This document shows positions 6,175 to 36,864 of a DNA stretch of 39,754 bases, in pieces (the first letter of the stretch is position 1; each line of letters opens with the position of its first letter). Both the position numbers and the translations under genes were made by a program. Source of the stretch: Acidobacteriota bacterium (GTDB taxonomy: Bacteria > Acidobacteriota > Thermoanaerobaculia > Gp7-AA8). Under the pieces are notes generated by a model. That model saw only the letters and a program-made list of their open reading frames with translations, was not told where the DNA came from and ran no database searches. The DNA is taken from positions 1 to 39,754 of the forward strand of contig QHVX01000009.1 in NCBI GenBank assembly GCA_003222375.1. Reading direction: 5' to 3'.

Positions 6175-6941
6175 TACTGCGATTTTTTCGCGTCGTCGAC
6201 GGCCTGTTGCATCTTCTTCTGCAGGTCGTCCAACCCCTTCTTCGACTGATCATCCGGCCCGGCGAGGCCGGCGAGCTCGCTGTCGTACTTCTTCAGAAGC
6301 TGCCGGTTGTAAGCGATCGCCGGATCCTCATTGGCCTTGGCAGTGAGATCTTGTCCTTCCTTCGCCGTCTTCTCGTACTGATCGAGCATCTGCTTGTACA
6401 TCTGCTTCGTCTGCTCGTCCTTCGCTTCTTCGTACGCTTTTCTCATCTGCGAGTGGCTGGACTCGACCGACGCTGCCATCGCGTTCGAAGTCATTTCAGC
6501 GAACGCCGTCGCGCTGACGGTCAGGACTTGACCCTTGACCCACAAATACTCCTGCGTGTTGTAGCCAAGGTCTTTGGCGGCGCGGATGTCGGCAGTGGCG
6601 AATTCCGCGGCGTTCCGCATTCCCTTGAAGCTCTCCATTACGCCGGCAATCGAGTTCTTCGACTTGTCGGCCGTCTTGAAGTGCTCATCCGCTTTTTGAT
6701 ACGCGGCCTTGGCGATCTCCTTCTCGTGCTGCTTCACTTTCAAATACATCTGGACCTGCGCGTCGGTCAGTTTGCCGTCCTTCGGCGGGTCGTACTTATC
6801 GTTAGCGACCTGCTTCATCAGGTCCATCGGGCCGCGTTTGTCGAGGTCTTTTGAGATGTTCGCTTTGTCAGCCAGCTCTTTGACCTTGCAGCCGAACAAA
6901 GCGACCGACAGCAGAAGAATCGCGGGAATGATCCGACGCAT
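6174..6941 (-). CDS. lipoprotein, Lys/Glu-rich and probably helical, unknown function
   Basis: 255-aa ORF with the lipobox MRRIIPAILLLSVALFGC. GGAGGA lies upstream of the ATG. The gene is co-directional with, and tightly spaced after, the MglA-like GTPase gene. Confidence 0.7.
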   Translation of the reverse strand: MRRIIPAILLLSVALFGCKVKELADKANISKDLDKRGPMDLMKQVANDKYDPPKDGKLTDAQVQMYLKVKQHEKEIAKAAYQKADEHFKTADKSKNSIAGVMESFKGMRNAAEFATADIRAAKDLGYNTQEYLWVKGQVLTVSATAFAEMTSNAMAASVESSHSQMRKAYEEAKDEQTKQMYKQMLDQYEKTAKEGQDLTAKANEDPAIAYNRQLLKKYDSELAGLAGPDDQSKKGLDDLQKKMQQAVDDAKKSQ

Positions 6942-6984
6942 TTAATTCCTCCAAATAATAGAGATTTTCGGAGATTCTATCAGG

Positions 6985-8110: not shown

Positions 8111-8377
8111 GTGGATGAGGGCCCGGTCGAGATCCCGATCACCGATACACTCGACCTTCATGCGTTTCGTCCCGACGAAATTCGCGATGTGGCGCTGGAG
8201 TACCTCACCGAAGCGCGGACGCGTGGTTTCAGGCAGGTGCGGTTGATTCACGGCCGCGGCATCGGCATGCAACGTGCGAATATTCAGTCGATGCTGCGAC
8301 GTCTCGACTTCGTTCAGGACTTCTGGGACGACGCGTCCCTCGGAGCGACCGTGGTAGTGCTGAGGACTGAGGACTGA
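8111..8377 (+). CDS. stand-alone Smr (small MutS-related) domain protein
   Basis: 88-aa ORF with LDLHAFRPDEI...VRLIHGRGIG, typical of Smr domains. The last codons and the TGA stop lie inside the GGACTGA heptamer array. Confidence 0.7.
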   Translation: MDEGPVEIPITDTLDLHAFRPDEIRDVALEYLTEARTRGFRQVRLIHGRGIGMQRANIQSMLRRLDFVQDFWDDASLGATVVVLRTED

Positions 8378-8394
8378 GGACTGAGGACTGAGAA
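8360..8394. repeat. tandem heptamer array (CTGAGGA x4 plus one variant), left arm of cassette 1
   Basis: Read directly: ctgagga ctgagga ctgagga ctgagga ctgagaa. It is the inverted complement of the array at 8653-8683. Confidence 0.9.
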
Positions 8395-8413
8395 CTACGA
8401 TCGGTAGAACTAA

Positions 8414-8683
8414 TTGTGGACCGAGGGACAATTAGTGCATGAAAAAAACAGAATTGAGCGCTTTGAAGATCTCATCGCTTGGCAAAGAGCACGTCTGATG
8501 ACGAACGCGGAAGTGCGCAATGATTTATATCTCGCGCTGGACGTCGGTTATGTGGACGAGACCACAGCATTGACGATGATCGCGAGCGCGGAAGAAGTCA
8601 GTCGAATCATTGGTGGCTTGCGAAGCGCAGTGGCTCGCCAGAGGAAACGCACTCAGTCCTCAGTCCTCAGTCCTCAGTCCTGA
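8414..8683 (+). pseudogene. degenerate four-helix-bundle protein gene (23S rRNA intervening-sequence protein/Avd-like family)
   Basis: The translation NRIERFEDLIAWQRARL...AEVRNDLYLALDVGYVDE...EEVSRIIGGLRSAV matches the intact copy at 13940-14320. About 45 central residues are missing. The conserved ATG at 8439 is out of frame because of an A7 run at 8442-8448. Confidence 0.6.
8653..8683. repeat. tandem heptamer array (TCAGTCC x4), right arm of cassette 1
   Basis: Read directly. It is the reverse complement of the GGACTGA units and ends 2 nt before the nadA ATG. Confidence 0.9.
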
Positions 8684-13834: not shown

Positions 13835-13847
13835 CTCGCGGATTATA

Positions 13848-13889
13848 GGACTCAGGACTGAGGACTGAGGACTGAGGACTGAGGACTGA
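13848..13889. repeat. tandem heptamer array (GGACTGA x5 plus one variant), left arm of cassette 2
   Basis: Read directly: ggactca ggactga x5. It starts 14 nt from the acyl-CoA dehydrogenase ATG. Confidence 0.9.
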
Positions 13890-13939
13890 GAAAATCCACC
13901 GCGCGTAGAGGGGCCTTTGCGACCGAGGGACAACTAGCC

Positions 13940-14320
13940 ATGGACAACAGAATTGAACGATTCGAGGACCTTATCGCGTGGCAAAAGGCGAGGCTTTGGA
14001 CAAGCGACATCTATCGAATGGCCTTAGAGGGACAGTTTGCCCGCGATATCGTTATGTCGCGGCAGATCCGAAGCGCCGCACTCTCCGTTCCCTCAAATAT
14101 CGCCGAGGGTTTCGAGCGGGGGAATCGCAATGAATTTCATCAATTCCTGTCGATCGCGAAATCTTCTGCAGCAGAAGTGCGTAGTGACCTCTACACTGCC
14201 TTGGATATCGGCTATTTGGAGGAGAAAAGATTCACATTGTTGCTGGGCGAAGGCGAGGAAGTTGCGCGGATTATCGGCGGTTTACGCCGAGCGGTGAATC
14301 GACAGCGAACGAAGAGATGA
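13940..14320 (+). CDS. four-helix-bundle protein (23S rRNA intervening-sequence protein/Avd-like family)
   Basis: 126-aa ORF. The stretch FEDLIAWQKAR...SIPSNIAEGFERG...EFHQFLSIAKSSAAEVRSDLY matches the family signature as I recall it. The 5' leader GACCGAGGGACAAyTAG is conserved with copy 1. Confidence 0.85.
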   Translation: MDNRIERFEDLIAWQKARLWTSDIYRMALEGQFARDIVMSRQIRSAALSVPSNIAEGFERGNRNEFHQFLSIAKSSAAEVRSDLYTALDIGYLEEKRFTLLLGEGEEVARIIGGLRRAVNRQRTKR

Positions 14321-14321
14321 C

Positions 14322-14367
14322 TCAGTCCTCAGTCCGCAGTCCTCAGTCCGCAGTCCTCAGTCCTGAG
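14322..14367. repeat. tandem heptamer array (TCAGTCC/GCAGTCC x6), right arm of cassette 2
   Basis: Read directly. It is the inverted complement of 13848-13889 and ends 4 nt before tRNA-Leu. Confidence 0.9.
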
Positions 14368-14370
14368 TTG

Positions 14371-14460
14371 GCCCCTGTGGCGGAATTTGGTAGACGCACG
14401 GGACTTAAAATCCCGAGGCCCGAAAGGGCCGTGCCGGTTCGAGTCCGGCCGGGGGCACCA
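14371..14460 (+). tRNA. tRNA-Leu (anticodon UAA), type II with a long variable arm and an encoded CCA
   Basis: Hand-folded. The acceptor stem pairs GCCCCTG with CGGGGGC. The anticodon stem CGGGA/TCCCG closes the loop CT-TAA-AA. The variable arm is GGCCCGAAAGGGCC. The T arm is GCCGG-TTCGAGT-CCGGC, followed by discriminator A and CCA. Confidence 0.9.
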
Positions 14461-17508: not shown

Positions 17509-20232
17509 TTGACGGCTGCAGACGGCACAACCGAACCAAAACTGAAGCGGCCGACGCTCGAGCGAGCGCGCTTCCCGCTGGTTTGGAAGTTGTTCGGTCT
17601 GACGGCGCTGCTGATCGTGATCGTGGTCGCCATCGCGGTCGGCATCACGATTCAACGCGCGGACGCGATTGCCGCGAACACGGTCAACACTTCGATTTCG
17701 AACGCCGCAAACCTCTTTCGTGAATTCGAGCGTCAGCGCCTCGGCCGCCTCGCTCTTCCAGCCATCCTGTTAGGCAACGATCCGAAGTTCGTCGCCTACA
17801 TCCAGGAATCGATGGGCGGGCAAGTCATCGACCTGGTGAGCATCGCCGATCAACTCGAGCAGCGCCGGCAATCCCTGGGCACCGATCTGCTGATTCTTCT
17901 CGACGATCAGGGCCGCATTGTCGCGCGCACCGATCAGCCGACGGTGAACACAGCGGGTCGCGAGGACTTGTACGAACAGTCGCCGCTCGTGAAGAAAATC
18001 GTCGACGATGTGAGCGTCGAGTTCACCGCCGGCGTTTTGCCGCTGAGCAAGAAGCTGTTCCACGCCGCGGTCGCGCCGATCGGCGCCGGAGCGAACAACG
18101 TCCGCGTCGGATATCTGGTCAACGCCTACGGGATCGACGACGCTTTTGCGAACCGTATCGCCGACGCGACCAACGCGGGCGTCATTTTCTTTTCGCCGAA
18201 TTCACTGGCGCGATCGGCGAATGCGCCGGCGTTCAACATGGCGCAGATGACAGGCACGGACCGGATCCTGAAAACCGGCAAACCTGTTCCACCTTCACGG
18301 CTCCAGATCGAACGCAATCGGTACGTCATGACCGGGCAGCCGTTGACGTCGGGAGGCGACACGGTCGGCGCTGCGGTGTTCATCCGCTCGCTCGAACGCG
18401 AGCTCGCGCCCTTCCGCCAAATCGAGCAGGCGCTTCTCTTCGGCGGCGGCGCGGCGCTGCTGCTGGCGTTCATCCTCTCCTACCTGATCGCAAAGCGGGT
18501 GACGCGGCCGATCGAGCAGCTCGCGATGACGGCGCAGTCGGTGACCGCCGGCGACTACTCCGTGCAGCCAAACATCGCGCGCGGCGACGAAATCGGCATC
18601 CTGGGCCGGTCGTTCGCGAAGATGATCGTCGCGCTTCGCGACAAGGCCGAGCTCGAAGAGCTGTACGAACAGATGGCCGCAAAATCGGCAGAGCGCGAGG
18701 CGGCAGCGGCGGCGGCCGCCGTTTCCAGAGCTTCGGAGCCGGCGCGGCTGGATGAAGGAACGGTCGTCGTGACCGATCTCCGCGGTCTGCCTCCGGTCGG
18801 CGATGGCGATCCGGCGCTTCTGGTCGGTGCGGTCAGCCGTGTGATGAAGCTGCAGGAAGCGGAGGTCGCGCGGCAGGACGGCGAGGTTCGCGAAGTCGAA
18901 GGGCATCGCCTGGTGAGCGTGTTCCGCGGTGATCGCGGAGTTTTGCATGCGATCCGTGCTGCCCGCGCGATCAACGAGGAGCTCGCTACGCTCACCGACG
19001 TGCAGATGTCAATCAGCGTCGGTATCGCGACCGGCCAGTTCGTGACCGGTTCGATCGAGGTCGACGGCAGCACCGGTCTCGCGATCCTCGGTAACGCGCC
19101 GCAGTTGGCGAGCGTGCTGGCATGGCACGCGCCGAATGGCTACGCGTACATCTCGTATGAAACTGCGCAGACGGCGGGCGGCGAGATCATGTCGGGTTCG
19201 ACACGGGAATCGATTCAGCTCAAATGGCTGCCGCAGCCGCTGCCGGTCGCATCGATGCCGTTGGTGAGCATCACGACCGGGGTCATGCGATCGATCGGCG
19301 CGACGACCGACTCGATGACAACGATGCGAATGGATGAGACTGCCGGCGCACCGCCGCCTCCCAGCGCCGCTATTGCGGAGCTGGCACCCGGACTTCTGTT
19401 CGCCAACCGCTATCGCATCGAACAGATCCTCGGCCGCGGCGGAATGGGCATCGTCTACAAGGCGAATGACACGCAGCTCGACGAGACGGTCGCGATCAAG
19501 ACCCTGCCCGGTGACGTGATGACGCGTTCAGCCGAAGAGCTGGAGCGATTCAAACGCGAGATTCGCCTCGCGCGGAAGATCACGCATCGCAACGTTCTCC
19601 GGACCTACGATTACGGCGAGGCCGAAGGCGTCTACTTCATCAGCATGGAGTGCGTCCGCGGCTACACGCTGTGGGAGCTTCTCGAAGAAGCGCCCAATCA
19701 TCGCCTTGCGCCGCGCGTTGCGCTGGGCATCGCGCGTCAGATTTGCCGCGGGTTGCAGGCAGCGCACGAGCAGGGAATCATCCACCGGGACATCAAGCCG
19801 CAGAACGTGCTCATCGATCACAAAGGCGAAGTGAAGCTGATGGACTTCGGCATCGCGCGCGTGGCGGAAGCGAAGGAAGGGATGACGCAGGCCGGCCTGA
19901 TCGTCGGAACTCCGCACTACATGAGCCCCGAACAGGTGCAGGGAAAACAACTCGATCCGCGCAGCGACGTCTACTCAGTCGGCATCTTGATCTACGAGAT
20001 GCTCGTCGGCGCGAAGCCGTTCGTCGCACCCTCGCTGACCGCCGTGCTGACCGCGCACATCACCGAGACGCCCAGGCCGGCGATCGAGCTGCGGCCGGAG
20101 ATCGGACGCGAAGTCAACGGCATCGTGATGCGCTGCCTCGCGAAAAACGCGAAGGATCGCTACACCGATGCCGGCGCGCTGCTGCAGGATCTCGATCAGG
20201 TGCAGATGACCGCCGCTGCGGTAGCGGCGTGA
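17509..20232 (+). CDS. membrane sensor protein: periplasmic domain, HAMP, degenerate class-III cyclase-homology domain, Ser/Thr kinase
   Basis: 907-aa ORF. The TTG start directly abuts the upstream TGA. It has two TM helices and a HAMP-like stretch (RPIEQLAMTAQSVTAGDYS...DEIGILGRSFAKM). A CHD-like segment follows (GTVVVTDLRG...SVGIATGQFVTG...ILGN). The kinase motifs are GRGGMGIVYKA, VAIK, HRDIKPQNVLI, DFGIAR and SPEQ. Confidence 0.85.
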   Translation: MTAADGTTEPKLKRPTLERARFPLVWKLFGLTALLIVIVVAIAVGITIQRADAIAANTVNTSISNAANLFREFERQRLGRLALPAILLGNDPKFVAYIQESMGGQVIDLVSIADQLEQRRQSLGTDLLILLDDQGRIVARTDQPTVNTAGREDLYEQSPLVKKIVDDVSVEFTAGVLPLSKKLFHAAVAPIGAGANNVRVGYLVNAYGIDDAFANRIADATNAGVIFFSPNSLARSANAPAFNMAQMTGTDRILKTGKPVPPSRLQIERNRYVMTGQPLTSGGDTVGAAVFIRSLERELAPFRQIEQALLFGGGAALLLAFILSYLIAKRVTRPIEQLAMTAQSVTAGDYSVQPNIARGDEIGILGRSFAKMIVALRDKAELEELYEQMAAKSAEREAAAAAAAVSRASEPARLDEGTVVVTDLRGLPPVGDGDPALLVGAVSRVMKLQEAEVARQDGEVREVEGHRLVSVFRGDRGVLHAIRAARAINEELATLTDVQMSISVGIATGQFVTGSIEVDGSTGLAILGNAPQLASVLAWHAPNGYAYISYETAQTAGGEIMSGSTRESIQLKWLPQPLPVASMPLVSITTGVMRSIGATTDSMTTMRMDETAGAPPPPSAAIAELAPGLLFANRYRIEQILGRGGMGIVYKANDTQLDETVAIKTLPGDVMTRSAEELERFKREIRLARKITHRNVLRTYDYGEAEGVYFISMECVRGYTLWELLEEAPNHRLAPRVALGIARQICRGLQAAHEQGIIHRDIKPQNVLIDHKGEVKLMDFGIARVAEAKEGMTQAGLIVGTPHYMSPEQVQGKQLDPRSDVYSVGILIYEMLVGAKPFVAPSLTAVLTAHITETPRPAIELRPEIGREVNGIVMRCLAKNAKDRYTDAGALLQDLDQVQMTAAAVAA

Positions 20233-20233
20233 C

Positions 20234-20307
20234 GTCATCCTGAGCCGCGCAGACGGCGAAGGATCTCGATCGCGCAACTTGAGATCCTTCGCTCCGCTCA
20301 GGATGAC
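20234..20307. repeat. long imperfect palindrome between convergent genes; REP-like or bidirectional terminator
   Basis: GTCATCCTGAGC...CGAAGGATCTC (20234-20267) pairs with GAGATCCTTCG...GCTCAGGATGAC (20281-20307). Confidence 0.6.
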
Positions 20308-20331
20308 GCTCGGCTCCGCTGTCGCCTCGCG

Positions 20332-21003
20332 TCACTTCCAAATCGACTCGAGCAGCGGCGCCTTGAAATAAAGACTGCCGACTTTCAACGCGTCTTCCTG
20401 CCCGACGTTGTCGAGCTCGAAGCTCTTCAATCGAATCAGCGGCAGTTTCTTGTAGCGTCGAAAGTTCAGCTCGACGTACAGCGGCGTGCCCGGGATGGAC
20501 TTCCACGACTCCGCGGTCGAGGGCGAGATGCCGCGGACAAACGCGTCCACGATCCGCCGCAACTGCAGGTTCTCGGGAATCGCGTTCGTCGTCCAGACAT
20601 CGATCCAGGCGTCGGGACCGAAGATCAAGCGATACCGTCGCGCCGCGATGCCGCGAACTTTTCCGGAGACCGGCGGCGCGATCGGAGGCGGTACGGATGC
20701 GATGTCGTCATCGTTCTTGGCCTTCTGCAACATGCTGGTGATTTCTGACACCGGCATCGTCGTGTACATCCGGCCGTACGGGTTCATGATCGTGACGGTC
20801 GGCGTTCCGAGGCGGCTGAAGCCATCCAGCCAGAGAGAGTCGGCGCGCACGCCGGCGGGATAAACGTGAAGCGTGATCGAGCCGAACCTGCTGAGGTACG
20901 GGAAAGGCGCCGCGGTATTCGCTTCGAGTTGGATGTGATACGGCTTGGGCGGAGCAGCGTGAACAGAAGTCGCGACGAGCAGAGCGAGAAAGATTCTTTT
21001 CAT
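20332..21003 (-). CDS. hypothetical secreted protein
   Basis: The start is ATG 21003 (MKRIFLALLVATSVHA, signal peptide). It overlaps the GT2 stop in a TGATG arrangement, which implies translational coupling. Confidence 0.65.
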   Translation of the reverse strand: MKRIFLALLVATSVHAAPPKPYHIQLEANTAAPFPYLSRFGSITLHVYPAGVRADSLWLDGFSRLGTPTVTIMNPYGRMYTTMPVSEITSMLQKAKNDDDIASVPPPIAPPVSGKVRGIAARRYRLIFGPDAWIDVWTTNAIPENLQLRRIVDAFVRGISPSTAESWKSIPGTPLYVELNFRRYKKLPLIRLKSFELDNVGQEDALKVGSLYFKAPLLESIWK

Positions 21004-21707
21004 CAGGGGCGGTGGGTCAGTGCATAAAGATACCAGCGTAGGTATCGCGGCAGCCATCGCAACAATTGGAAGCGCGACTGCCCCCTGGAACGGTCGCGCC
21101 ACTCCGTGGGCACTTCCACGACGCGATAACCGGCAGCGTAAGCCTTGGCGGTGAGCTCCAGCGAGTACTCGAACCCGCCGCGGCTTTCGATTTCAAAAGA
21201 CTTCAGGACGTCGCGTCGATACGCGCGAAACGCATTCGTGGCGTCGTGGACCGGAAAGCCTGCAAGGTGCAGCGAGAGCCCGGCAAGGCGCGACAGCGTC
21301 TTTTTGATCATGCCGCCGCCAATTTGCCGGCCGCCTCGCATGTAGCGCGATGCGCACACCACGTCGGCTTCCCCGGCGCGAATCCGGCGCACCATCTCGT
21401 TCACGATCGCGGGATCATCAGACAGATCGGCCATCGTGATGATCACGACATCGCCTGTCGCGGCGTCAATGCCGCTTCGGATCGCGGCCAGGACCCCGCT
21501 TCCCCGCGTATTTCGAACGAGCGTCAAGCCTTCGTATCGATCGCTCAACGAGCGCGCGACCGGCAACGTGTCGTCGTCGTCGAAGTCGTAGACGATCAGC
21601 ACACGCTTCGCGTACGGAACGCTGCGGTACAACTCGGTCACCATCGCTGCAATGTTTTTGCTCTCGTTGAAAACGGGAACGATGAAATCGACAGTTTCAG
21701 ATGGCAC
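21003..21707 (-). CDS. family-2 glycosyltransferase (polyprenyl-phosphate sugar synthase type, DPM1/ArnC-like)
   Basis: 234-aa ORF with IVPVFNESKNI and the acidic motif YDFDDDDT. Its small size is typical of Dpm1/ArnC-like GT2 enzymes. Confidence 0.85.
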   Translation of the reverse strand: MPSETVDFIVPVFNESKNIAAMVTELYRSVPYAKRVLIVYDFDDDDTLPVARSLSDRYEGLTLVRNTRGSGVLAAIRSGIDAATGDVVIITMADLSDDPAIVNEMVRRIRAGEADVVCASRYMRGGRQIGGGMIKKTLSRLAGLSLHLAGFPVHDATNAFRAYRRDVLKSFEIESRGGFEYSLELTAKAYAAGYRVVEVPTEWRDRSRGQSRFQLLRWLPRYLRWYLYALTHRP

Positions 21708-22716
21708 CGACGGACACCCTTTCTCGAATCCAGGGCACGATCTCGTCGAGAGCTTCTTCGACGCTGGTGGTCGCTTCGAAGTTCAGGATCCGTTTCGCCT
21801 TCTCGGTGCTCGGAATCCGTCGCTGCACGTCGTAGCGGAACGGTTTGTCGGAAACGTACCGGAACGGATCGCCCGGCCGGATTTTCTTCCAGATCAGCTC
21901 GGCGAGCTTCAGCACCGTCATCGATTGCGGGGACGAGAGATTGAAGTCTTCGTTGAGCGCCTTGGGCGATTCGACCGCCAGGCGGATTCCTCTTCCGAGG
22001 TCGCCGCCATATGTGTAATGCCGCACTTGGTTGCCATCGCCCAGGATGTGCAGCGGATCCTGACCCTTGAGAACTCTTTGCACGAGATCGGGCACGACGT
22101 GACTCATCGCGAGGCGAACATTGCCGGACGTCAATCTGCTTTCGACGACCGCGTTCGACTCGCCAATGCCGATGCAGTTGAACGGACGCACAATCGTGAA
22201 CGGCAGGCCGTACTGTTCCCTGGCGCCTTGCGCGAAGTACTCCGTCGCGAGTTTTTGAAATCCGTATGTCGACCTCGGTGGCGGACTGCGCCGTTCCTCA
22301 CCTTCGGGAGTCGGATAGACATCGGTGCTTTCGAAAACCATCGAAGAGGAGATGACGGTGATCTTGTGCAGCGTCTGACGCTGATGCGCGCGGATGGCGG
22401 CATCGAATGCGCTGGCCGTGATGCGCTCGTTCTCCGCGATCAGATCGTAGGCCAGCTCGTGAAAGAGCGCGATGCCTCCGACGACTGCCGCGCCGGCGAC
22501 GAAGTGATCGCAATCGCGCAACAGATCATCGAGCAGGGCCGCATCTTTCGCGTCTCCGCGAATGAATCGATAACGCGGATGATCGGCGTAGCTGCGCTGC
22601 AGGGCACCGTACTTCGAGAGATTGTCGAGCCCCACGACTTCATAATCCGCGCGCAGCAGCTCCTCGATGAGATAACCGGCGATGAAGCCTCCCGCACCGG
22701 TGACGAGAATCTTCAT
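21697..22716 (-). CDS. NAD-dependent nucleoside-diphosphate-sugar epimerase/dehydratase (SDR family)
   Basis: The start is ATG 22716 (MKILVTGAGGFIAGYL, GxxGxxG). It has a YxxxK-like motif (YGFQK) and an ATGA overlap with the upstream gene. Confidence 0.85.
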   Translation of the reverse strand: MKILVTGAGGFIAGYLIEELLRADYEVVGLDNLSKYGALQRSYADHPRYRFIRGDAKDAALLDDLLRDCDHFVAGAAVVGGIALFHELAYDLIAENERITASAFDAAIRAHQRQTLHKITVISSSMVFESTDVYPTPEGEERRSPPPRSTYGFQKLATEYFAQGAREQYGLPFTIVRPFNCIGIGESNAVVESRLTSGNVRLAMSHVVPDLVQRVLKGQDPLHILGDGNQVRHYTYGGDLGRGIRLAVESPKALNEDFNLSSPQSMTVLKLAELIWKKIRPGDPFRYVSDKPFRYDVQRRIPSTEKAKRILNFEATTSVEEALDEIVPWIRERVSVGAI

Positions 22717-23927
22717 TGGAGGAGAGCGCCCTTGCCGTAGAAGTTCCAGATATCGATCACGCGCCGGCCACCGAGGTCCAGCTCGCGATAACGTCGATGC
22801 GGCGCGCCGAGGATGATGAGGTCGCAACTGTCGACGAGATCTTCAGCGGGGATGAACCGCGGGTCCGAGATGTATTCGTCGCTGCAAACGACCTCGCGCG
22901 CTTCGTATTCGAGAATCTTTCGGAGCTTGTACGACAGTGACGCTCGTGGATCGTCGCTCTCCGCTTTGAAGCTCATCCCCAGGATTCCGACTCGCATCTC
23001 GTTAAGCGGATGCCTTCTCTTGAGGTGCCGGACGATGAAATTCGGCAAGCCCTCGTTGATCAGCATCGCAGCATGGCCGAGCTGGAAATTGTTGTTGTAG
23101 GCCGCGGCCAGCTGCATCGTGTCTTTGAAGAGGCAGGGTCCGGCCGCGAAGCCGCTGCCTGGAAAACCGGACATCCGCGGATAGTCGGCGACGACGGCGT
23201 CATAAATGCGATAGAAATCGAGTCCATAATCGGCGGCGATCATGAAGAACTGGTTGGCGGCCGCAAACTGAATGTATCGCCACGAGTTCGTGAAGACTTT
23301 CGCGAGCTCGGCCTCCGCCGGATCGAGCCGGATGATGTTCGGACTCAGCCGTCCGAACAACGCGGCCGCCATTTCGGTCGCCTGGCCGTCACAGCCGGCA
23401 ACAATTTGCGGCAGCGTCTTGAACTCTTTCAACGCATGTCCTTCGGCGATGCGCTCGGGACAAAACGCCACGTGCACGCGGAGTCCCGCTTCGCGCAACA
23501 ACTCGTCCACCTTGGCAGTCGTTCCCGGAAAGACAGTGCTTCTCAAAATGATGCACTGACCGTCGCGCAGATGTGGTGTCAGGCCCGTGAAGAAGCGCCG
23601 AATCGTGTAAAAGGTCGGGTTCAAGTGTTCGTCGACCGGCGTGCCGATCACCACGACGACGTACTGCGCTTTAGCTACAGATTCCGGAGTAGTCGATGCG
23701 CAAAGCGTTTTTCCGATGTGCTTGCGAAGAAGCGCATCGGCACCTTCCTCACGGAAAGGCATGACGCCCTGGCCTACCGTCTTCACCGCCTGAGAGTCGA
23801 TGTCGTAGATCGACACCCGCAGCCCGCTCTCCGCAAATGCGATGGCCAGCGGAAGGCCGACGTGGCCGCAGCCGCCGACGACACAGACGTCGAATTGATC
23901 GCTCACCGGCACGACAGTGTATCGCAA
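22713..23927 (-). CDS. nucleotide-sugar dehydrogenase (UDP-glucose/GDP-mannose dehydrogenase family)
   Basis: 404-aa ORF with an N-terminal Rossmann motif (VCVVGGCGHVGLPLA) and the catalytic-Cys motif GFAAGPCLFKD. The start codon (TTG at 23927) is uncertain. Confidence 0.85.
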   Translation of the reverse strand: MRYTVVPVSDQFDVCVVGGCGHVGLPLAIAFAESGLRVSIYDIDSQAVKTVGQGVMPFREEGADALLRKHIGKTLCASTTPESVAKAQYVVVVIGTPVDEHLNPTFYTIRRFFTGLTPHLRDGQCIILRSTVFPGTTAKVDELLREAGLRVHVAFCPERIAEGHALKEFKTLPQIVAGCDGQATEMAAALFGRLSPNIIRLDPAEAELAKVFTNSWRYIQFAAANQFFMIAADYGLDFYRIYDAVVADYPRMSGFPGSGFAAGPCLFKDTMQLAAAYNNNFQLGHAAMLINEGLPNFIVRHLKRRHPLNEMRVGILGMSFKAESDDPRASLSYKLRKILEYEAREVVCSDEYISDPRFIPAEDLVDSCDLIILGAPHRRYRELDLGGRRVIDIWNFYGKGALLQ

Positions 23928-23962
23928 CGATATGACATTATTTTCGTGTTAGGCCTGGATCG

Positions 23963-25876
23963 ATGATCGCTCTGCGGATCGTGTTTCTCCTGTTGCTGCT
24001 GGCGGTCTGTTCTGTTTTTCCGGGATTTTTGCTGGTGCGCAAGCTGCGGTGGAGCGCGGCAGAAAAACTGTGCGGGTCGATCGCGGCGTCGCTGATCTTC
24101 CTTTATCTCGCGTCCTTCCTGGTTTTTTTCCTGTGGCTGCCTACGTGGTGCTACTGGCTTCCCTCCGCTGCCTCTCTGGTCGCGGCTGTCGTTGTATGGC
24201 GCGACCTGACGAGACTCGTGATGACGCGCCACGTTCGGCGGTTTCTCGCCGGATACCTCTTTTTGTTCGTGTGGACGTTTACGCTGCTTCTCCTGGTGCG
24301 GACATACAGCGGGGGAGGGTGGGGCGGCGACTGGCTCGAACATTTTCATCGGTCGCTCTTTTTTCTCCGCCATCTTCCGCCCGGGACAATGTTCGTCGAT
24401 GTGTACGCGCTACCGGCGCGTCCGCCGATGATGAATGTGCTGACTGCGTTTTTTCTGGCACACGCCGGGGACAGCTTCGAGAACTTCTCGGTCGTATTTC
24501 TCGGCCTCAACTTGCTCGTTTTTTTTCCGTGCGCGCTGATGCTGCCGGCATTCGCGCGGCGGGGATCGAAAAGAATCCTGATCCTGGTGGGCCTGCTTGC
24601 CTGCTCGCCGATGTTGATGCAGAACGCGACCTACACCTGGACGAAATCGCTGTGCTCCTTTTACGTGATCTTCGGGCTCTGGCTGTACCTCGCGGGCCTG
24701 CGAAAAAACGAGGCGTCGAGAATCGTTGCGGCGTTCATCTCGCTGGCGGCCGGCATGCTGGTGCACTACGCGGCCGGTCCCTATCTCATCTTTGTGACGG
24801 CGCATCTTCTGATCACGTCCATGCGACGGAGATGGCGCGTCATCCTGATAGCGGGAGCCTGTTCATCAGTCCTGTTCGGAACGTGGCTGGCGTGGTCGAT
24901 TGCGAATTACGGCCTGCGATCGACATTCGCTTCGAACACGACGGTCACGACCTCGCAGCAACTCGGTGACTCGAACGCGCGCAAGTTTCTCCTCAATCTT
25001 CGCGACACGATCGTGCCGCATCCACTTCGCGAACTGCCGATTGATCGCGACCAGCGGCAAGCCGGCTATGTCCGCGACTACTTTTTCCTGATGTATCAGA
25101 CGAATCTCGTCACGGGCATGGGCATTGTCGGCGGCTTGGTCATCGTGTATCTCTTTTTTCGAGTCGTACGGCAAAGGCGCGAAATCTTCTGGCTGGTCTT
25201 CATCCCGGCCATGTTTCTCCTCGGCATCGCCGTTGTCGGTGAGCGCGATCCCGCCGGATCGGCGCACCTCACGCTGCAACCGATCGTCTTTCTGGGCCTG
25301 ACATTCCTGGCGGCGCGTTTCTTCACGCTTGGAATGCTGGCCAGATCGGCGGTCATCGCCGGATGCGCGATCGATCTCGTCTTCGGCGTGTTTCTGCAGC
25401 ATGGCCTCGAAAATTACGAGAACGACGTATGCCAGGAACGCTTTCAGTCCGCGGTTCGTGCCGCACCTACCGGCGTTTACGTCGTCACGGAAACAGACAT
25501 CTCTCCGACAGCAGCGTCGAACTGGCGGATGAAAAGGTACGCGTTCGTGCCGAAAACAATTGCGCCGATGCTGTCGAAGGCCACGCTCAAGCCGGAAGCG
25601 CGCGCGATGATCCTGCACCGGCTCGAAGTGCAGTCGCGCATTCTGCGCGATGAGGATTTGTCAGCCTGGGGTGGATGGTGGCGCCGCCATTCCGATCGCG
25701 TCACATTCCTCGGCGATCACATCGGCTGTCACGTCTGGTTTCTCTACGCCTTCGACGTGATGCTACTCGGCGGTCTGGTCACAGTGATCCGGCGGCAGCC
25801 GCGCTTCACAGAGCCGACCGAGCAGCCGCAGATGGACCGCCGATCGCGCCGCAGAGCCAGACGCCGAAAACGCTAG
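23963..25876 (+). CDS. polytopic membrane protein, probable GT-C (ArnT/PMT-like) glycosyltransferase
   Basis: 637-aa ORF with at least 10 hydrophobic helices and a basic C-terminal tail. The functional call rests mainly on context: it is divergent from the GT2, epimerase and dehydrogenase genes. Confidence 0.6.
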
Positions 25877-26332
25877 AACGTGGAATCGAGGAAAGGCCGG
25901 AGCTTCTTCGATCGCGACGGATGCCGCAGCTTGCGCAGGGCCTTCGATTCGATTTGGCGGATGCGCTCGCGCGTGACGTTGAACGAGCGGCCGACTTCCT
26001 CGAGCGTATGCTCGGATCCGTCGCCCACGCCAAATCGCATCTTGAGCACCTGCTCCTCGCGCGGCGTCAGCGTGCGGAGGACCTTGTTGGTCTGCTCTTT
26101 CAGATTCGCCACGATGACGTGATCGATCGGGGAGATCACGCCGCGATCCTCGATGAAATCGCCAAGATGCGAATCTTCCTCTTCGCCGATCGGCGTCTCG
26201 AGTGAGATCGGCTCCTGCGCGATCTTCATGATCTTGCGGACCTTCGCCACCGGCATGTCCATCCGGTCGGCGATCTCCTCGGCTTGCGGTTCGCGGCCGA
26301 GCTCCTGGACCAGCGCGCGTGAGGTGCGCGTG

Positions 26333-26364
<32 letters not shown>

Positions 26365-26413
26365 AATGCGGATGGTGCGAGCCTGATCGGCGATCGCGCG
26401 CGTGATGGCCTGA

Positions 26414-26454
<41 letters not shown>

Positions 26455-26779
26455 GCGGTACTCGAATTTCTCGACCGCCTTCATGAGACCGATGTTGCCT
26501 TCCTGGATCAGGTCGAGGAACTGCAGTCCGCGATTGGTGTACTTCTTCGCGATCGAGACGACGAGGCGAAGGTTCGCGACGATCAGTTCCTGCTTCGCCT
26601 GATCGGCTTCCTCTTCGCCGGCCTTGATGTCCTTGATCGTCACGCGAAGCTCGATATGGCTCGTGCCGTAGAACGACTCGAGCTCGCGCAGTTTTTCCTG
26701 ATACTTCTGCAGGCGCCGGCGGTAGAAGTCGCGGCGCGTCTTGTCCTTCTCGCGCTTGAGCGCTGCCTCGTCCTTGCGG

Positions 26780-26978
26780 ATCATCGCGGCCTCCAGCGGC
26801 ATCGTCGACAAGACCAACGATCCTGTCCGCATGTATCTGCGCGAAATGGGGACGGTCAAGCTGCTCGATCGGCAGGGCGAAGTCGACATCGCGAAGCGCA
26901 TTGAAAAGGGCGAGCGCAAGGTCTACAAGGCGCTCTCGCAGAACCGCATCATCCTCGAAGAAATCCTGAAGATCCACG
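26780..26978. repeat. left arm of the 199-bp perfect inverted repeat (antisense copy of rpoD region 1.2)
   Basis: It is the reverse complement of 27087-27285, read base by base by eye. On the plus strand it encodes [66 protein letters not shown]. Confidence 0.9.
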
Positions 26979-27086
26979 TCGTGAGCGCCGTCGCCGACAG
27001 CGTGGCGGCATCGATCTCGTCCTCATCCTCGGGCATCGCGAGATCGATCATCTCTTTGATGACGCGTGTGTCCTTCTTCGCGCTCT

Positions 27087-27285
27087 CGTGGATCTTCAGG
27101 ATTTCTTCGAGGATGATGCGGTTCTGCGAGAGCGCCTTGTAGACCTTGCGCTCGCCCTTTTCAATGCGCTTCGCGATGTCGACTTCGCCCTGCCGATCGA
27201 GCAGCTTGACCGTCCCCATTTCGCGCAGATACATGCGGACAGGATCGTTGGTCTTGTCGACGATGCCGCTGGAGGCCGCGATGAT
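27087..27285. repeat. right arm of the 199-bp perfect inverted repeat (sense copy of rpoD region 1.2 on the minus strand)
   Basis: It is the reverse complement of 26780-26978. The flanking bases differ on both sides, which sets the arm boundaries. Confidence 0.9.
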
Positions 27286-27675
27286 TCTTCGATCGCGCCG
27301 TCGACCGTCATCGTGCCCTTGCCGGTGGAAGGGGCGAGCTGCTTCTCGGCATCTTCAATGACGTCGATGCCGAGGTCGGTGAAACGGATGTAGATCTCGT
27401 CGAGCTCCTCGGGAAGGCTTGTGACTTCCTCTGGGAGAATTTCGTAGATCTCGTCGTAGAGAAGGAATCCTTTTTCCTTCCCCAGAGCGATGAGCTGCTT
27501 GACCTCGACGTATTTTTCTTCGACGCTCAACTCACCGACCCCTTCCTCAACATCCGTGGATTCCTGTTCGAGATTCGCACCGCGCAGGCGTGTCGTCATC
27601 TCTTCAGTCGCTCCTCATCGCTCTGCAGTTTTGCCTCTTCGCAAGGACACTCGCGTAATCGCAAGAGGACGATAA

Positions 27676-29412
27676 TTATTTCAGTGTGCTCAACATACGG
27701 GACAGTTCGAGCTTCTCGGTATCGAGCTGCCGTTCACGACTGTGGTCGCCGTTGCGCACCGCTTCCTCAATGTCTTGTTGAATTTCCCGTTTCCGCCGCT
27801 CGATGTACGCCTTCTGCATCGGGATGAGGACCTCGTCCAGACGCCCCAGTGCTACGTCTTCGAGGTCTTCCGTGAGCGTTACTTCCGAGAGCAGGGTCAG
27901 CTCGGCCTCGCCCTTAAGATGGGTCGCGATTTCCGAATAATCAATAGGTTGACCAGCGGAAATCGCACTTTTTGTGATAGAAAACAGGGTTCTGCAAGCG
28001 GGATCGCTGAAAAAACCCTCCTTGATCCCCTCAACCTTGTCCCGACCCAGGCGCCCTTGAACCAGTGCAGTCAGCACGAACTTCTCGCCGCTGGGGACAG
28101 CCCTGACAACCTGCCGCTCAACCGGGCCTGCCGCTTTTCCCCGCACTTTTGACCAGACCGTCTCGAATTCGAGGTGGAAGCCGTCAGCGATTCGTTGCGC
28201 CGCGTCGTTGCGAACGACGGGATCGACAACCGCGCTCAGCAGCGGCATGAACGCCTCGACGCGGTCGGCCTTCTCGCGGCCGGTCAACGTCTTGACGTTG
28301 GAGGCCCACTCTTTGAGCGCAAAGTCGAAGATGTCAGTCGCATTGCCAAGCAGTTCGAGGAACCGGTCGACTCCCTGGTTCTGAATCAGCGTGTCGGGGT
28401 CTTTTTCACCTTGTAAATCCAGCGCGGAGACAGTCAGCCCGGCCGCCAGCAGGACAGGGGCGGCGCGGAGGGTGGCGCTCTTGCCGGCGTCGTCGCCGTC
28501 GTACGCGATCACAACCTTCGTGGTGTAACGGCGCAGCAGCGAAGCCTGACCCGATGTCAGCGATGTGCCCATCGACGCCACGACACCTGGAACGCCGGCG
28601 TGATCGAGCGCGATGGAATCGAAATAGCCCTCGACGAGAATCGCGCGATCGATGCGGCGCATCGCATCTTTCGATCGATGCAGGTTGTACAGCAACCGCG
28701 ATTTATTGAAGAGATCCGACTCCGGCGAGTTGAGATATTTCGGATCGGTGCCGTCGAGCGAACGTCCGCCGAATCCGACCAGCGCGCCCGTCTCTCTGTG
28801 AATCGGAATCATCAGGCGATTGCGAAACCGATCGTAGTAGCCGGTCCCGCTCTTGCGCGGCATCACCAGACCCGCGAGCTCGAGCGTCTTCTCGCCATGT
28901 TTGCGAGCGAGGCGAGTGAGGACGTAGTCCCACGAGTCGGGCGCATATCCGAAGCCGTATTTTTTGATGATGTCTTCGCCGACTTTGCGGTCGTCGAGAT
29001 ATTTCCGCGCCGGATTGTCGGGAAATCCGAGGGCCTGGTGAAAAGCTTCGGAGGCTTCGTCGACGACTTCGAGCAGGTCGTCTTTGTCGCTTTCCCTGGT
29101 CGTCTTGCGGCGACGGGGAAGCTCGATGCCGACGCGCGAGGCCACGTGCTCGACCGCCTCCGGAAACGTGAATCGCTCGGTGAGCGCGAGGAACTTGAAA
29201 ACATCGCCGCCCGTGCCGCAGCCGAAGCAGTAGAAAAGCCCTTTGTCGCGATCGACATGGAATGACGGCGTCTTCTCGCGATGAAATGGGCAGAGACCCT
29301 TGTAGCTCTTGCCGGCGAGCTTGAGAGGAGTGACCTGCGAAACGAAGTCGACGATGTCGGCTGCGCTCCGCACCTGCGCGATCACCGAGTCATTGAGATC
29401 GACAAACGCCAT
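27676..29412 (-). CDS. dnaG: DNA primase
   Basis: 578-aa ORF. It has the zinc-finger CPFHREKTPSFHV...YCFGCGTGGDVFKF and the TOPRIM motif ILVEGYFDSIAL. Its ATG overlaps the mutS2 stop in a TAATG arrangement. Confidence 0.9.
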   Translation of the reverse strand: MAFVDLNDSVIAQVRSAADIVDFVSQVTPLKLAGKSYKGLCPFHREKTPSFHVDRDKGLFYCFGCGTGGDVFKFLALTERFTFPEAVEHVASRVGIELPRRRKTTRESDKDDLLEVVDEASEAFHQALGFPDNPARKYLDDRKVGEDIIKKYGFGYAPDSWDYVLTRLARKHGEKTLELAGLVMPRKSGTGYYDRFRNRLMIPIHRETGALVGFGGRSLDGTDPKYLNSPESDLFNKSRLLYNLHRSKDAMRRIDRAILVEGYFDSIALDHAGVPGVVASMGTSLTSGQASLLRRYTTKVVIAYDGDDAGKSATLRAAPVLLAAGLTVSALDLQGEKDPDTLIQNQGVDRFLELLGNATDIFDFALKEWASNVKTLTGREKADRVEAFMPLLSAVVDPVVRNDAAQRIADGFHLEFETVWSKVRGKAAGPVERQVVRAVPSGEKFVLTALVQGRLGRDKVEGIKEGFFSDPACRTLFSITKSAISAGQPIDYSEIATHLKGEAELTLLSEVTLTEDLEDVALGRLDEVLIPMQKAYIERRKREIQQDIEEAVRNGDHSRERQLDTEKLELSRMLSTLK

Positions 29413-31721
29413 TATTCCTCGAGCACGGCGACAGTAGCACCATCTCCTCCCTCGTTCTCATTGCCGGGACGCCACGATTTCACGGCCGGATGCTTGCGCA
29501 GATGCTCGCGCACGGCCTTGCGGAGCGCGCCGGTCCCGAAGCCGTGAATGATGCGCACAGCCTGCTTGCCTTCGAGCAAAGCGCGGTCGAGAAACTTGTC
29601 CGACGCTTCTAACGCGTCGTCGACTCGCTGGCCGATCAGATTGAGCTCTGCCGTCTCAGGGATGAGGGATGGGGGATGAGGGATGAATGATTTGTGAGAA
29701 GGCTTCATCCCTCCGCCCTCATCCCTCAGCCCTAAGAGCTCTTTACGATCGACAGTCATCCTCTTACCCGAAACGTTCAATACCGCCTTCGTCCCGTCAA
29801 TCGACTCCACCACGCCGCGCACCTTGAACTTGCGATGCTCCGCCTGATGTCCCACCCGAACCTCCCGCCGCTCTTCGGGCAGAAACTCGATTGCCTGATC
29901 GATCGGCTTCGTGAGCGTCGTGACGACCTGTCGCATATTCGCGTTCGCGCGCAGATTCTTGATCTCGTTCGAGACCTGACGCGAGACATCGTCGCGCAGG
30001 CGCTCCAGCTCTTCGCGAAACGCCGATCCGACGCGCGCGCGTTCGCTGTCGAATTTCTTACGACTGGCCTCCAGCGCTTGCCGCTCTTCTTCGGCTGCTG
30101 CCTGCCGCCTTTCGAGTTCCGCGCTTTGCTCTACAACGCTGCTCATTTTGTTCTGCAGCATGCCGACGAGTTGATCGACCTCGACATAGCGAGGTCCGAG
30201 TCGCTCGCGAGCGCGGTCGATGATGGGGGAGGGAAGACCGATCACCTGCGCCACTTCGATGGCGCGGCTGCGACCGGGAATGCCGACGATCAGGCGGTAG
30301 GTCGACTTGCCGGTCGCGGTGTCGAACTCCATCGACGCGTTGACGACGCGCGAGTCGTTCATCGCGAAGCTCTTCACCGACGAAAGATGCGTCGTGACGA
30401 TCAACAATGCGCCGCGCTCGAGGAAATACTCGATCACCGCGGCTGCCAACGCAGCACCTTCTTCCGGATCGGTTCCCGCTCCAAGCTCGTCGAGGAGGAC
30501 CAGCGATCGCTCCGTAGCCGCCGAGATCACGCGCTTCAACCGCACGAGGTACGCCGAAAAAGTCGAGAGATGTTCGGTAACGCTCTGATCGTCGCCGACG
30601 AGGACGTGAATCGCGTCGACGATCGGAATCATCGAGCCATCGGCAGCGGGAAGTGGGAGGCCGCTCATCGCCATCGCGACGAGAAGCCCGGTCGTCTTGA
30701 GCGCAACGGTTTTGCCGCCGGCGTTCGGTCCGCTGATGATCAGGGCGCTCGTCGCGGCGCGCAGCTCGACCGTGACCGGAACAACAGGTTGATCGGTTTC
30801 CTGCACGCGTTCATCGAGCAGCGGATGGCGCGCGTCGATCAGGTGCAGACGTCGATCGTTGTTGAATGACGGCCGGCTGGCGCCGACGGTGTCGGCGAAG
30901 ATCGCGCAGGCCTGCAGCGCATCGAGCTCGCCGGCAACGTGAATCGCGGCGCGAATGTCATCGGCGGCCTCGGCGATCAATTGCGAAATGAAGCGCAGGA
31001 TGCGCGCGATCTCTTCGCGTTCCTGCAGCAAGAGATCGGCGAGGTCGTTGTTCAACTCGATGGCCTGCATCGGCTCGATGAACACCGACGCGCCGGACCC
31101 GCTGCGCTCGTGCAGGATTCCGGGGATCGCGTTGCGATGATCGGTGCGCACCGGGATGCAGTAGCGATCGCCTCGCATGACGATCAGCGGCTCCTGGATT
31201 GCCTCGCCATGTTTGTTCATGACGTCGTGGAGGACGCGTTGGACGGCGTTGCGCTTTTCCGGCACGCGTTTGCGGATCGCGCGAAGCTCGGCGGATGCAT
31301 CCTCGCGAAGCTTGCCCTCGCGGGTGAAAAACTTGTTCAGCTTTCCGACCAGCTCATCGAGCTCCGGAATTGCGCTCGCGATCGCCGCGAGCCGCAAGAA
31401 GCCTTCGGTTCGCGTGCACGTCTCGCGCAGGGCTTGCGTCGCGCGGACCGCGCGAAAGACTTGCCACGACTCCTCGAGCTCCAGCACCGAATCGCGGGCC
31501 AGCAGCGCACGGACATCCGTCAAGCCGGCGAGCGGCATCAGCCCTTGCGTATGAACGAAACGCCGCATGTCGGCGAGATCGGCCTGCGCGTTTTCGCAGG
31601 CCGTGAGCGTCGGCAGGGGATGGCGCCTCGCGACGGCATCCTTGCCGGGGGCGCTTTTCGCCTCCATGGCGACGAGCGTCAGGATGCGATCGAATTCGAT
31701 TTCGTGGAGTGGTGATTTCAC
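29412..31721 (-). CDS. mutS2: endonuclease MutS2 (MutS domain V ATPase plus C-terminal Smr)
   Basis: It has the Walker A motif ISGPNAGGKTVALKT and the C-terminal Smr motif VRIIHGFGTGALRKAVREHL. I prefer GTG 31721 (VKSPLHEIEFDRIL) as the start. The longer track ORF reads through the octamer palindrome. Confidence 0.85.
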   Translation of the reverse strand: MKSPLHEIEFDRILTLVAMEAKSAPGKDAVARRHPLPTLTACENAQADLADMRRFVHTQGLMPLAGLTDVRALLARDSVLELEESWQVFRAVRATQALRETCTRTEGFLRLAAIASAIPELDELVGKLNKFFTREGKLREDASAELRAIRKRVPEKRNAVQRVLHDVMNKHGEAIQEPLIVMRGDRYCIPVRTDHRNAIPGILHERSGSGASVFIEPMQAIELNNDLADLLLQEREEIARILRFISQLIAEAADDIRAAIHVAGELDALQACAIFADTVGASRPSFNNDRRLHLIDARHPLLDERVQETDQPVVPVTVELRAATSALIISGPNAGGKTVALKTTGLLVAMAMSGLPLPAADGSMIPIVDAIHVLVGDDQSVTEHLSTFSAYLVRLKRVISAATERSLVLLDELGAGTDPEEGAALAAAVIEYFLERGALLIVTTHLSSVKSFAMNDSRVVNASMEFDTATGKSTYRLIVGIPGRSRAIEVAQVIGLPSPIIDRARERLGPRYVEVDQLVGMLQNKMSSVVEQSAELERRQAAAEEERQALEASRKKFDSERARVGSAFREELERLRDDVSRQVSNEIKNLRANANMRQVVTTLTKPIDQAIEFLPEERREVRVGHQAEHRKFKVRGVVESIDGTKAVLNVSGKRMTVDRKELLGLRDEGGGMKPSHKSFIPHPPSLIPETAELNLIGQRVDDALEASDKFLDRALLEGKQAVRIIHGFGTGALRKAVREHLRKHPAVKSWRPGNENEGGDGATVAVLEE
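29655..29732. repeat. GGGATGA-heptamer palindrome embedded in frame in mutS2
   Basis: AGGGATGAGGG (29658-29668) pairs with CCCTCATCCCT (29717-29727). GGGATGAA (29680-29687) pairs with TTCATCCC (29704-29711). The element is translated as ...GGGMKPSHKSFIPHPPSLIPE... just before the Smr domain. Confidence 0.55.
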
Positions 31722-31722
31722 A

Positions 31723-31785
31723 GGTTGTCGCGTTGTCGGGTTGTCGGGTTGTCGACAACCTGAGAACTCGACAACCTGACAACCC
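31723..31785. repeat. GGTTGTCG-octamer tandem array with an inverted copy (palindrome centred on GTCGAC)
   Basis: Read directly: ggttgtcg cgttgtcg ggttgtcg ggttgtcg | acaacc tgagaactcg acaacc tg acaaccc. It lies between the rpsU terminator and the mutS2 start. Confidence 0.7.
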
Positions 31786-31788
31786 AAC

Positions 31789-31817
31789 AAAAAAGGACCC
31801 GCCTTGTCGGCGAGTCC
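31789..31817 (-). terminator. intrinsic terminator downstream of rpsU
   Basis: On the minus strand, GGACTCGCC-GACAA-GGCGGGTCC is followed by TTTTTTG. It lies 25 nt after the rpsU stop. Confidence 0.7.
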
Positions 31818-36013: not shown

Positions 36014-36036
36014 GGCCGGATAAGGATAAACCAAGT

Positions 36037-36107
36037 CAGAAGGCAGAAGGCAGCAGGCAGAAGGCTGCCTTACTTCTCCTTCTGCCTCCTGCCTCCTGCC
36101 TCCTGCC
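36037..36107. repeat. GGCAGAA/GGCAGCA heptamer array with an inverted TCCTGCC array (hairpin)
   Basis: The left arm (36037-36064) pairs with the right arm (36078-36107), with one mismatch per heptamer outside a perfect 9-bp core. The right arm encodes the last ~12 codons of the 264-aa ORF. The TAA stop lies in the loop. Confidence 0.6.
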
Positions 36108-36864
36108 TTGCTTCCTGGCTTTCTGGCATACCGATGGAAGGTGCGATAAAACGCGCCTCGCTGGTCGCATTCTCGATGACCGAGGCGTAAACGTAGGTAT
36201 TGGGGGCGCTGGTTTCGACGACCACGTTGAAGTTGTCGCCTTTCGCGATCAGGGGGAAGAGCGTCTGGATCGAGGTGTGCGCGAGGGAATTCGCTCCGAT
36301 TGCAATCCGCGCGACCGCGATGTTGCGTCCGGCTACCCGCTGCACGGCTAGTGTGAATGTCGCCTCGCGGTCGCCCAGGTTGACGAGGCCGAGGTTGGTG
36401 CGAAAGACGTCGCTGAACGAAAGATTGTTCAGCGTACGGAACGGATACGACGCATCGTTGTAGATGACCGGGATGGGCTCCGGCCGCGTGATGTCGGTGC
36501 CGCGGATCGCATACGCATTGGCTGCCACGCGCACGGAACGTTTCCCCATCGTCTCGACGATCAGCGGCGAGAGCGCGGCCTCCATCCCAAATGCCTGAGC
36601 GACGACGTCGGCAAATCGCTGTGTTCCGCCGCCGGGAAGCGTGAACGCAATTGTCGGCTGGTCTGGTGCCGTCGGGAGACGGAGAGCGACGAACAATTCC
36701 TCGCGGCCGTCGTTGTGCAGTTCGACGTCGGTTTTCCAACGGACCTCGTTCGGACCGGTGACGCTGCCGACGATCGGCACCAGGACGCTCACGCTTTGTG
36801 GCGTCTGCGCAAGTGCAGGCGCGGCAAGCAAAAGCGTGGCTAAGAATGGCCGCAACATATCCAT
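36070..36864 (-). CDS. secreted single-domain protein, paralogous to the duplicated C-terminal domain of the giant protein at 282-4949
   Basis: It has a signal peptide (LLLAAPALAQ). Motifs shared with both domains of the giant protein are VP.VG......W.TDV.L.N, FRTNLGL and VYASVIEN.T.E. Its ATG overlaps the upstream stop in a TAATG arrangement. Confidence 0.7.
   Translation of the reverse strand: MDMLRPFLATLLLAAPALAQTPQSVSVLVPIVGSVTGPNEVRWKTDVELHNDGREELFVALRLPTAPDQPTIAFTLPGGGTQRFADVVAQAFGMEAALSPLIVETMGKRSVRVAANAYAIRGTDITRPEPIPVIYNDASYPFRTLNNLSFSDVFRTNLGLVNLGDREATFTLAVQRVAGRNIAVARIAIGANSLAHTSIQTLFPLIAKGDNFNVVVETSAPNTYVYASVIENATSEARFIAPSIGMPESQEARQEAGGRRQKEK

Follow-up and report, generated by a model that had tools for sequence, protein, structure and literature searches.

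The closest described counterparts of the structure reported here come from genome assembly, DNA amplification, replication and programmed inversion within genes. Chen, Anantharaman, Shaiber, Eren and Banfield (2020) described overlaps at scaffold ends whose length equals the largest k or k-1 used by the assembler, and local assembly errors, which lack supporting reads and are especially prominent in the output of IDBA-UD (PMC7111523). For IDBA-UD itself the overlap is stated as n and not n-1, which counts against the match to k-1 considered below (PMC7111523). Among the chimeras made by strand-displacing polymerases, inverted joins with deletion of the intervening sequence and 2-21 nt of complementarity dominate (PMC1855051). 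Template switching between short inverted repeats is also known as a source of mutations, by which the arms of the repeat are extended (PMC7202029, PMC8604942).

We examined a long inverted duplication within rpoD in a DNA stretch of 39,754 nt (referred to as the window), which is the whole contig of a GenBank MAG and contains no Ns at a G+C content of 60.7%. Both a repeat search and a direct string test found two inverted arms of 199 nt each that are 100% complementary and enclose a spacer of 108 nt, for a total of 506 nt. The symmetry is broken at all four arm ends, where the flanking bases mismatch, so that the string test bears out a preliminary description of this DNA in which exact reverse-complement arms with four differing flanks had been read by eye. 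No other long inverted repeat was found in the window by the repeat search, and a repeat of 199 nt cannot be due to chance. As single-stranded DNA, the repeat region folds with -325 kcal/mol (z = -40 compared to shuffled sequences). The presence of the inverted duplication in the deposited sequence is thus confirmed.

The repeat leaves rpoD, a minus-strand gene, broken into three ORFs (Table 1). In the sense direction, the order of blocks in the contig is A/B-C/rc(B)/D (a slash marking a junction), and the native order is A-x-B-C-y-D. Block B is contiguous with spacer C, as it is in all relatives. The contig has lost 37 nt at J1 and a net 54 nt between C and D, or 91 nt overall.

Table 1. Coordinates of the blocks and junctions that make up the broken rpoD locus, and of the neighboring dnaG gene.
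Feature	Position in window	Strand	Remarks
Block D, 3' part of rpoD (RKDEAALK... via regions 2-4 to stop codon)	25873..26779	-	fully intact
J3 microhomology ATCATCGCGGC (reverse complement GCCGCGATGAT)	26780..26790	+	J3 (rc(B)/D) at 26779/26780
Left arm rc(B), exact inverted copy of region 1.2	26780..26978	+	occupies the place of the native 253 nt (KINDIM...SQSAAMI); contains a stop
Junction J2 (C/rc(B))	26978..26979	.	spacer end abuts the reverse complement of the end of B; blunt, 0-nt overlap
Spacer, block C, native rpoD (ESAKKDTRVIKEMIDLAMPEDEDEIDAATLSATALT; ESAKKD...ATALT)	26979..27086	-	gene positions 551-658
Right arm, block B, native RpoD region 1.2 (...EILKIH)	27087..27285	-	gene positions 352-550
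Junction J1 (A/B)	27285..27286	.	37 native nt gone (gene positions 315-351, encoding KEVDQREEVQAD); 1-nt overlap; frameshift
Block A, 5' part of rpoD (start codon to ...TMTVDGAIE, region 1.1)	27286..27599	-	from ORF and alignment to relatives
dnaG, directly upstream of rpoD	27676..29412	-	normal dnaG-rpoD synteny

The three junctions are not alike. The sequence at J3 is ambiguous: GCCGCGATGAT is what the first 11 nt of B give when reverse-complemented, and it also stands immediately before D in the native gene, so that it may count as the last part of the inverted arm or as the native codons ...AAMI that precede RKDEAALK. The segments joined there are about 560 nt apart. In the native gene of one relative (L002, positions 352-362 and 901-911) this 11-nt inverted match is one of the two longest, and in the other relatives the microhomology is only 5-7 nt. 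Overlap is therefore at most 11 nt at J3, compared to 1 nt at J1 and none at J2, a pattern that fits one homology-guided junction and two arbitrary abutments.

The consequences for the reading frame had been set out in the preliminary description, and our ORF and frame check reproduced all of them. The right arm and spacer encode RpoD from region 1.2 onward, region 1.1 runs into the right arm out of register as a result of the frameshift at J1, the antisense left arm leads the frame into a stop directly after ...TWIFRISSRMMRFCESAL, and regions 2-4 are cut off from any upstream frame. Removing the left arm alone does not rescue the frame, deletion of the full 506 nt produces an in-frame join (GA/C), and the spacer is free of stops in either orientation. 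Where RpoD needs one uninterrupted frame, the GenBank record holds three ORFs, separated by the J1 frameshift and the stop in the antisense arm: PYQ53764.1 (DMF59_00980), a 167-aa hypothetical protein consisting of block A and an out-of-frame read-through to 27096; PYQ53763.1 (DMF59_00975), a hypothetical protein that is the third rpoD piece; and PYQ53762.1, a 342-aa "RpoD" called from the ATG at 26901. A 103-aa fragment aligns to RpoD positions 122-195, and the 3' fragment scores 555.1 bits with the NCBIfam model NF004208 (RpoD; cutoff 555) and 412 bits with TIGR02393 (cutoff 354). Regions 1.1, 1.2, 2, 3 and 4 are all recognizable, as in a group 1 sigma-70 factor. A tblastn search for sigma regions 2-4 found this one locus in the window and no second. 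The inverted arm also places a GGAGG 5 nt upstream of an in-frame ATG (window 26784-26799, minus strand). If the allele truly existed in vivo, this pair could in principle give a sigma fragment with regions 2-4 and without regions 1.1 and 1.2; as a ribosome-binding site it very probably has no meaning should the structure be an artefact.

Comparison with relatives revealed what the native gene looks like. All of the best homologs (120 of 120), from Thermoanaerobaculia and Acidobacteriota metagenome genomes, are full-length RpoD proteins of 568-628 aa, mostly 604-612, and full-length relatives carry PF03979, PF00140, PF04542, PF04539 and PF04545. A protein alignment of the window with eight intact relatives of 604-606 aa, at no more than 98% identity, showed that 12 aa (KEVDQREEVQAD) are missing between A and B and 85 aa of a non-conserved region between C and D. 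The latter segment, KINDIM...SQSAAMI, is what belongs between ATALT and RKDEAALK, a point for which the preliminary description had looked to close relatives. The DNA alignment placed the breaks to the base, with x being 37 nt (gene positions 315-351) and y 253 nt (659-911), and the rebuilt native gene is 1818 nt long with an intact ORF of 605 aa, in which B accounts for 199 nt and C for 108 nt. Apart from these losses, all four blocks A to D are intact, with 95-98% protein identity to relatives. Since these blocks have not decayed, the disruption, if there was one, had no evolutionary time.

A sister contig from a separate assembly (L001; ENA ERZ27315255, k141_5833734, MEGAHIT) encodes a DnaG identical to that of the window and matches the window with 99.87% identity over 6128 nt, gap-free. 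Its block A is 100% identical, and x, B, C and y follow one another in it as in the native gene. Comparison with this contig indicates that the intact arrangement is present in the same population. The inverted structure is missing from a near-identical genome and from independent assemblies, as would be expected of a misassembly. In its final ~470 nt (about 6700-7189), beginning near the end of y, the identity of the sister contig drops to about 77-91% relative to both the window and other relatives; this divergent end, at about 85% identity, is probably due to chimerism at the end of the contig or to recombination in the 3' half of rpoD.

The length of the arms is informative when the origin of the assembly is considered. 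On the basis of the DMF59/PYQ accession series, we take the MAG to belong to BioProject PRJNA449266, presumably the study of Angelo Coast Range grassland soil by Diamond et al. 2019. In the Angelo soil study, DNA was obtained by direct PowerMax soil extraction and entered standard JGI Illumina libraries unamplified, with no MDA; the 2x250 Illumina reads were hard-trimmed to about 200 nt and assembled with IDBA-UD v1.1.1 (-mink 30 -maxk 200 -step 10) (PMC6784897). In a de Bruijn graph with k = 200, neighboring vertices overlap by 199 nt, and no inverted repeat longer than 199 nt can avoid repeating a 200-mer. The arm length equals maxk-1 of the presumed source study, and the repeat therefore looks like a product of a de Bruijn graph. 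This argument stands only insofar as the source assembly used 200 as its largest k.

We also simulated the locus by placing the rebuilt native gene in a k = 200 graph together with one inverted chimera at the J3 microhomology. The resulting non-native unitig was 387 nt long and identical to the left arm of the window (199 nt) followed by positions 1 to 188 of D. The native unitig began at position 352, the first base of B, and the upstream unitig stopped at position 550, the last base of B. When a SNP was added at gene position 315, a third codon position at which relatives have A or G, the upstream unitig stopped at 314, exactly where A ends in the contig. Breaks in the k = 200 graph thus coincide with both repeat ends, with the end of A and with J3. 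However, the end of the spacer (position 658) was not reproduced by the simulation and requires a branch at 459 or 659. A polymorphism at 459, 351 or 659 was rejected as the source of a B+C unitig, as all three positions are invariant in 10 relatives; a sequencing-error branch is a possible source of the spacer end. A SNP at 513-515, combined with a mis-trimmed 199-nt overlap, was likewise rejected as the cause of the end of A, as the two differences between the window and the sister contig lie at 525 and 534 instead. The blunt joins at J1 and J2, in a contig free of Ns, are impossible by pure de Bruijn traversal. Snap-back priming was considered for J2 and discarded, for the junction sequences offer no suitable base pairing and the join is blunt.

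We conclude that the inverted duplication is, with high probability, a local misassembly in a short-read soil MAG and not a structure of rpoD in the organism, which almost certainly carries a normal 605-aa RpoD. In the course of events that we propose, an inverted chimeric link rc(B)-D would have formed at native microhomology, between ATCATCGCGGC where B begins and GCCGCGATGAT immediately ahead of D, either in a single chimeric library fragment or in a rare template-switch molecule, and this link would have been taken into the de Bruijn graph. At the final k of 200, it would yield a unitig made of 199 nt (k-1) of rc(B) and then D, the native path would break at the start and the end of B, and the polymorphic gene position 315 would terminate the upstream unitig where A is seen to end. 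The assembler may then have strung together the upstream contig, B-C and rc(B)-D by blunt joins, dropping 37 nt at J1 and swapping the 253-nt y for the 199-nt inverted arm; for the blunt J1 and J2, some merging step would have to be assumed. The preliminary description had also considered an artefact, in the form of an MDA fold-back or a long-read palindrome. Our analysis supports the artefact but not this route as its main cause, since the spacer is native, the flanks continue normally, and the presumed source, which relied on unamplified Illumina libraries, used neither method.

It is possible, but unlikely, that the assembler was faithful and that a molecule carrying the whole of A/B-C/rc(B)/D was made in vitro by polymerase template switching during library preparation or amplification, in a region of low coverage. 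J3 lies at a native microhomology of up to 11 nt and is an inverted join of the kind that strand-displacing polymerases favor. However, a single molecule would have had to acquire three junctions within 506 nt, two of them with an overlap of 0-1 nt, the presumed source did not involve whole-genome amplification, and the identity of the arm length with k-1 would be a coincidence.

We consider it very unlikely that the structure reflects a recent mutation in vivo, in which a template switch during replication, of the quasipalindrome type or a fold-back, occurred at a short inverted repeat and left a lineage of cells, or relic DNA, with a null rpoD allele. In favor of such an event, J3 falls exactly on a short inverted repeat of the native gene, and identical arms in an undecayed gene are what a new event would be expected to leave. 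However, rpoD is the single housekeeping sigma gene, with no second copy in the window, and a null allele is unlikely to reach consensus frequency; the 99.87%-identical sister strain is intact; and losses of a further 37 nt and 54 nt occurred at blunt joins. The mutation would also have to match the presumed k-1 of the assembler in arm length and to be unique in the public data searched. We therefore give little credence to a true allele within the soil Thermoanaerobaculia population that is tolerated by means of a second copy, polyploidy or relic DNA.

The uniqueness of the structure was assessed in several collections. Junction k-mers were absent from GTDB representative genomes (two junctions, exact scan) and from IMG/VR, and a 24-mer across J2 had no match in GTDB representative genomes or IMG/VR viral contigs. 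In JGI metagenome contigs, the sole match to a J2 20-mer was an unrelated ECF sigma gene (L006), a chance match. Among about 15 billion proteins, a single contig accounts for all three broken ORFs. Two cluster mates of the 103-aa ORF (P0124 and P0125) were examined as candidate carriers of the junctions and rejected, as both are native.

A programmed inverton, in which recombination between the arms flips the 108-nt spacer and thereby switches sigma-factor isoforms, can be dismissed as exceedingly improbable, for despite perfect arms around a short segment that is stop-free both ways, the same stop in the antisense arm ends either orientation, the frame is already lost at J1, the arms consist of sequence that codes for the essential region 1.2, the repeat is missing from all relatives, and no recombinase, invertase or transposase was found near rpoD in a Pfam scan of 10 neighboring ORFs (whose content comprised a kinase, a GT2 glycosyltransferase, an epimerase, a UDP-glucose dehydrogenase and a PMT_2-like protein). 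The suggestion in the preliminary description that the organism might carry a rearranging rpoD is not supported, for related reasons: flipping the spacer repairs the gene in neither orientation, 37 + 253 native nt are absent, the near-identical sister contig is native, no recombinase is nearby, and the junctions were found nowhere else. Programmed inversion is thus excluded in practice.

Other repeats and gene-content differences were noted in the window. Two "four helix bundle protein" genes (TIGR02436, 23S rRNA intervening-sequence protein type) at 13847-14368 and 8360-8681 are both bracketed by inverted 7-nt tandem arrays, (GGACTGA)n ... (TCAGTCC)n. The complete gene (13940-14320, 126 aa, 93.5 bits) adjoins a tRNA-Leu(taa) at 14371-14460, and the second (8414-8683, 89 aa) is apparently internally deleted; in sequence the two look like small repeat-flanked cassettes. 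Palindrome-like GGTTGTCG repeats opposite GACAACC repeats lie at 31723-31790, at the mutS2 / rpsU end, AGGGATG and TCATCCC repeats at 29658-29733, and two neighboring 7-nt arrays at 36033-36108. These 7-8-nt tandem arrays may be terminator-like elements or repeats typical of the lineage. Relative to an 88%-identical relative (L003/L004), the window also contains an extra block of ~5.5 kb between rpoD and a HAMP / Ser-Thr kinase gene (window 17509-25876), with genes for cell-envelope glycosylation: a PMT_2-like membrane protein, UDP-glucose dehydrogenase, an NAD-dependent epimerase and a GT2 glycosyltransferase.

The biological importance of the broken locus is small. It has nevertheless placed an essential single-copy marker gene in the record as a truncated "RpoD" (PYQ53762.1) and two "hypothetical proteins" (PYQ53763.1 and PYQ53764.1), entries that find their way into protein databases and can bias phylogenies and estimates of completeness. 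It also offers a reusable diagnostic for artefacts, namely a perfect inverted or direct repeat with a length of the largest k minus one within an otherwise conserved gene, delimited by one microhomology junction and by blunt joins. If the structure were true in vivo, it would be a rare natural case of a large template-switch inverted duplication that inactivates an essential gene.

When set against intragenic invertons, the rpoD locus shares the inverted repeats around a short segment within a coding sequence. However, no recombinase is encoded nearby, neither orientation is functional, conserved coding sequence makes up the 199-nt arms, and nothing of the arrangement is conserved in relatives. 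The likeness to quasipalindrome template-switch mutations is that copying the flank of one arm turns a short inverted repeat into a long perfect one (PMC7202029, PMC8604942). A short inverted repeat did exist beforehand at the presumptive switch point. However, the flanks did not remain unchanged after switch and return, as 37 nt and a net 54 nt were lost. The quasipalindrome events that are known involve tens of nucleotides and conserve length, whereas here 199 nt were copied, 91 nt were lost on balance and an essential gene was destroyed.

Strand-switch chimeras from MDA (Lasken and Stockwell 2007, PMC1855051) resemble J3 in the inverted join between nearby segments, the short complementarity and the loss of what lay between. 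With 5-11 nt of complementarity over ~560 nt, J3 has the properties by which such chimeras were defined, and J1 (1 nt) and J2 (0 nt) do not (PMC1855051). In contrast to MDA chimeras, microhomology is found at one of three junctions, the presumed source reports no MDA, and the length of the arm appears to be set by k and not by chemistry. Strand switching therefore fits J3 but leaves J1, J2 and the k-1 arm unexplained. Inverted duplications are not described among the local assembly errors of IDBA-UD, in an account by the laboratory of the presumed source study where "inverted" and "palindrom" have 0 occurrences (PMC7111523). In other respects the rpoD locus is like those errors, having a short wrong internal stretch in a long scaffold, a gene that is broken by it, relatives that lack it, and, for the presumed source assembly, a characteristic length equal to the largest k or k-1 (PMC7111523).
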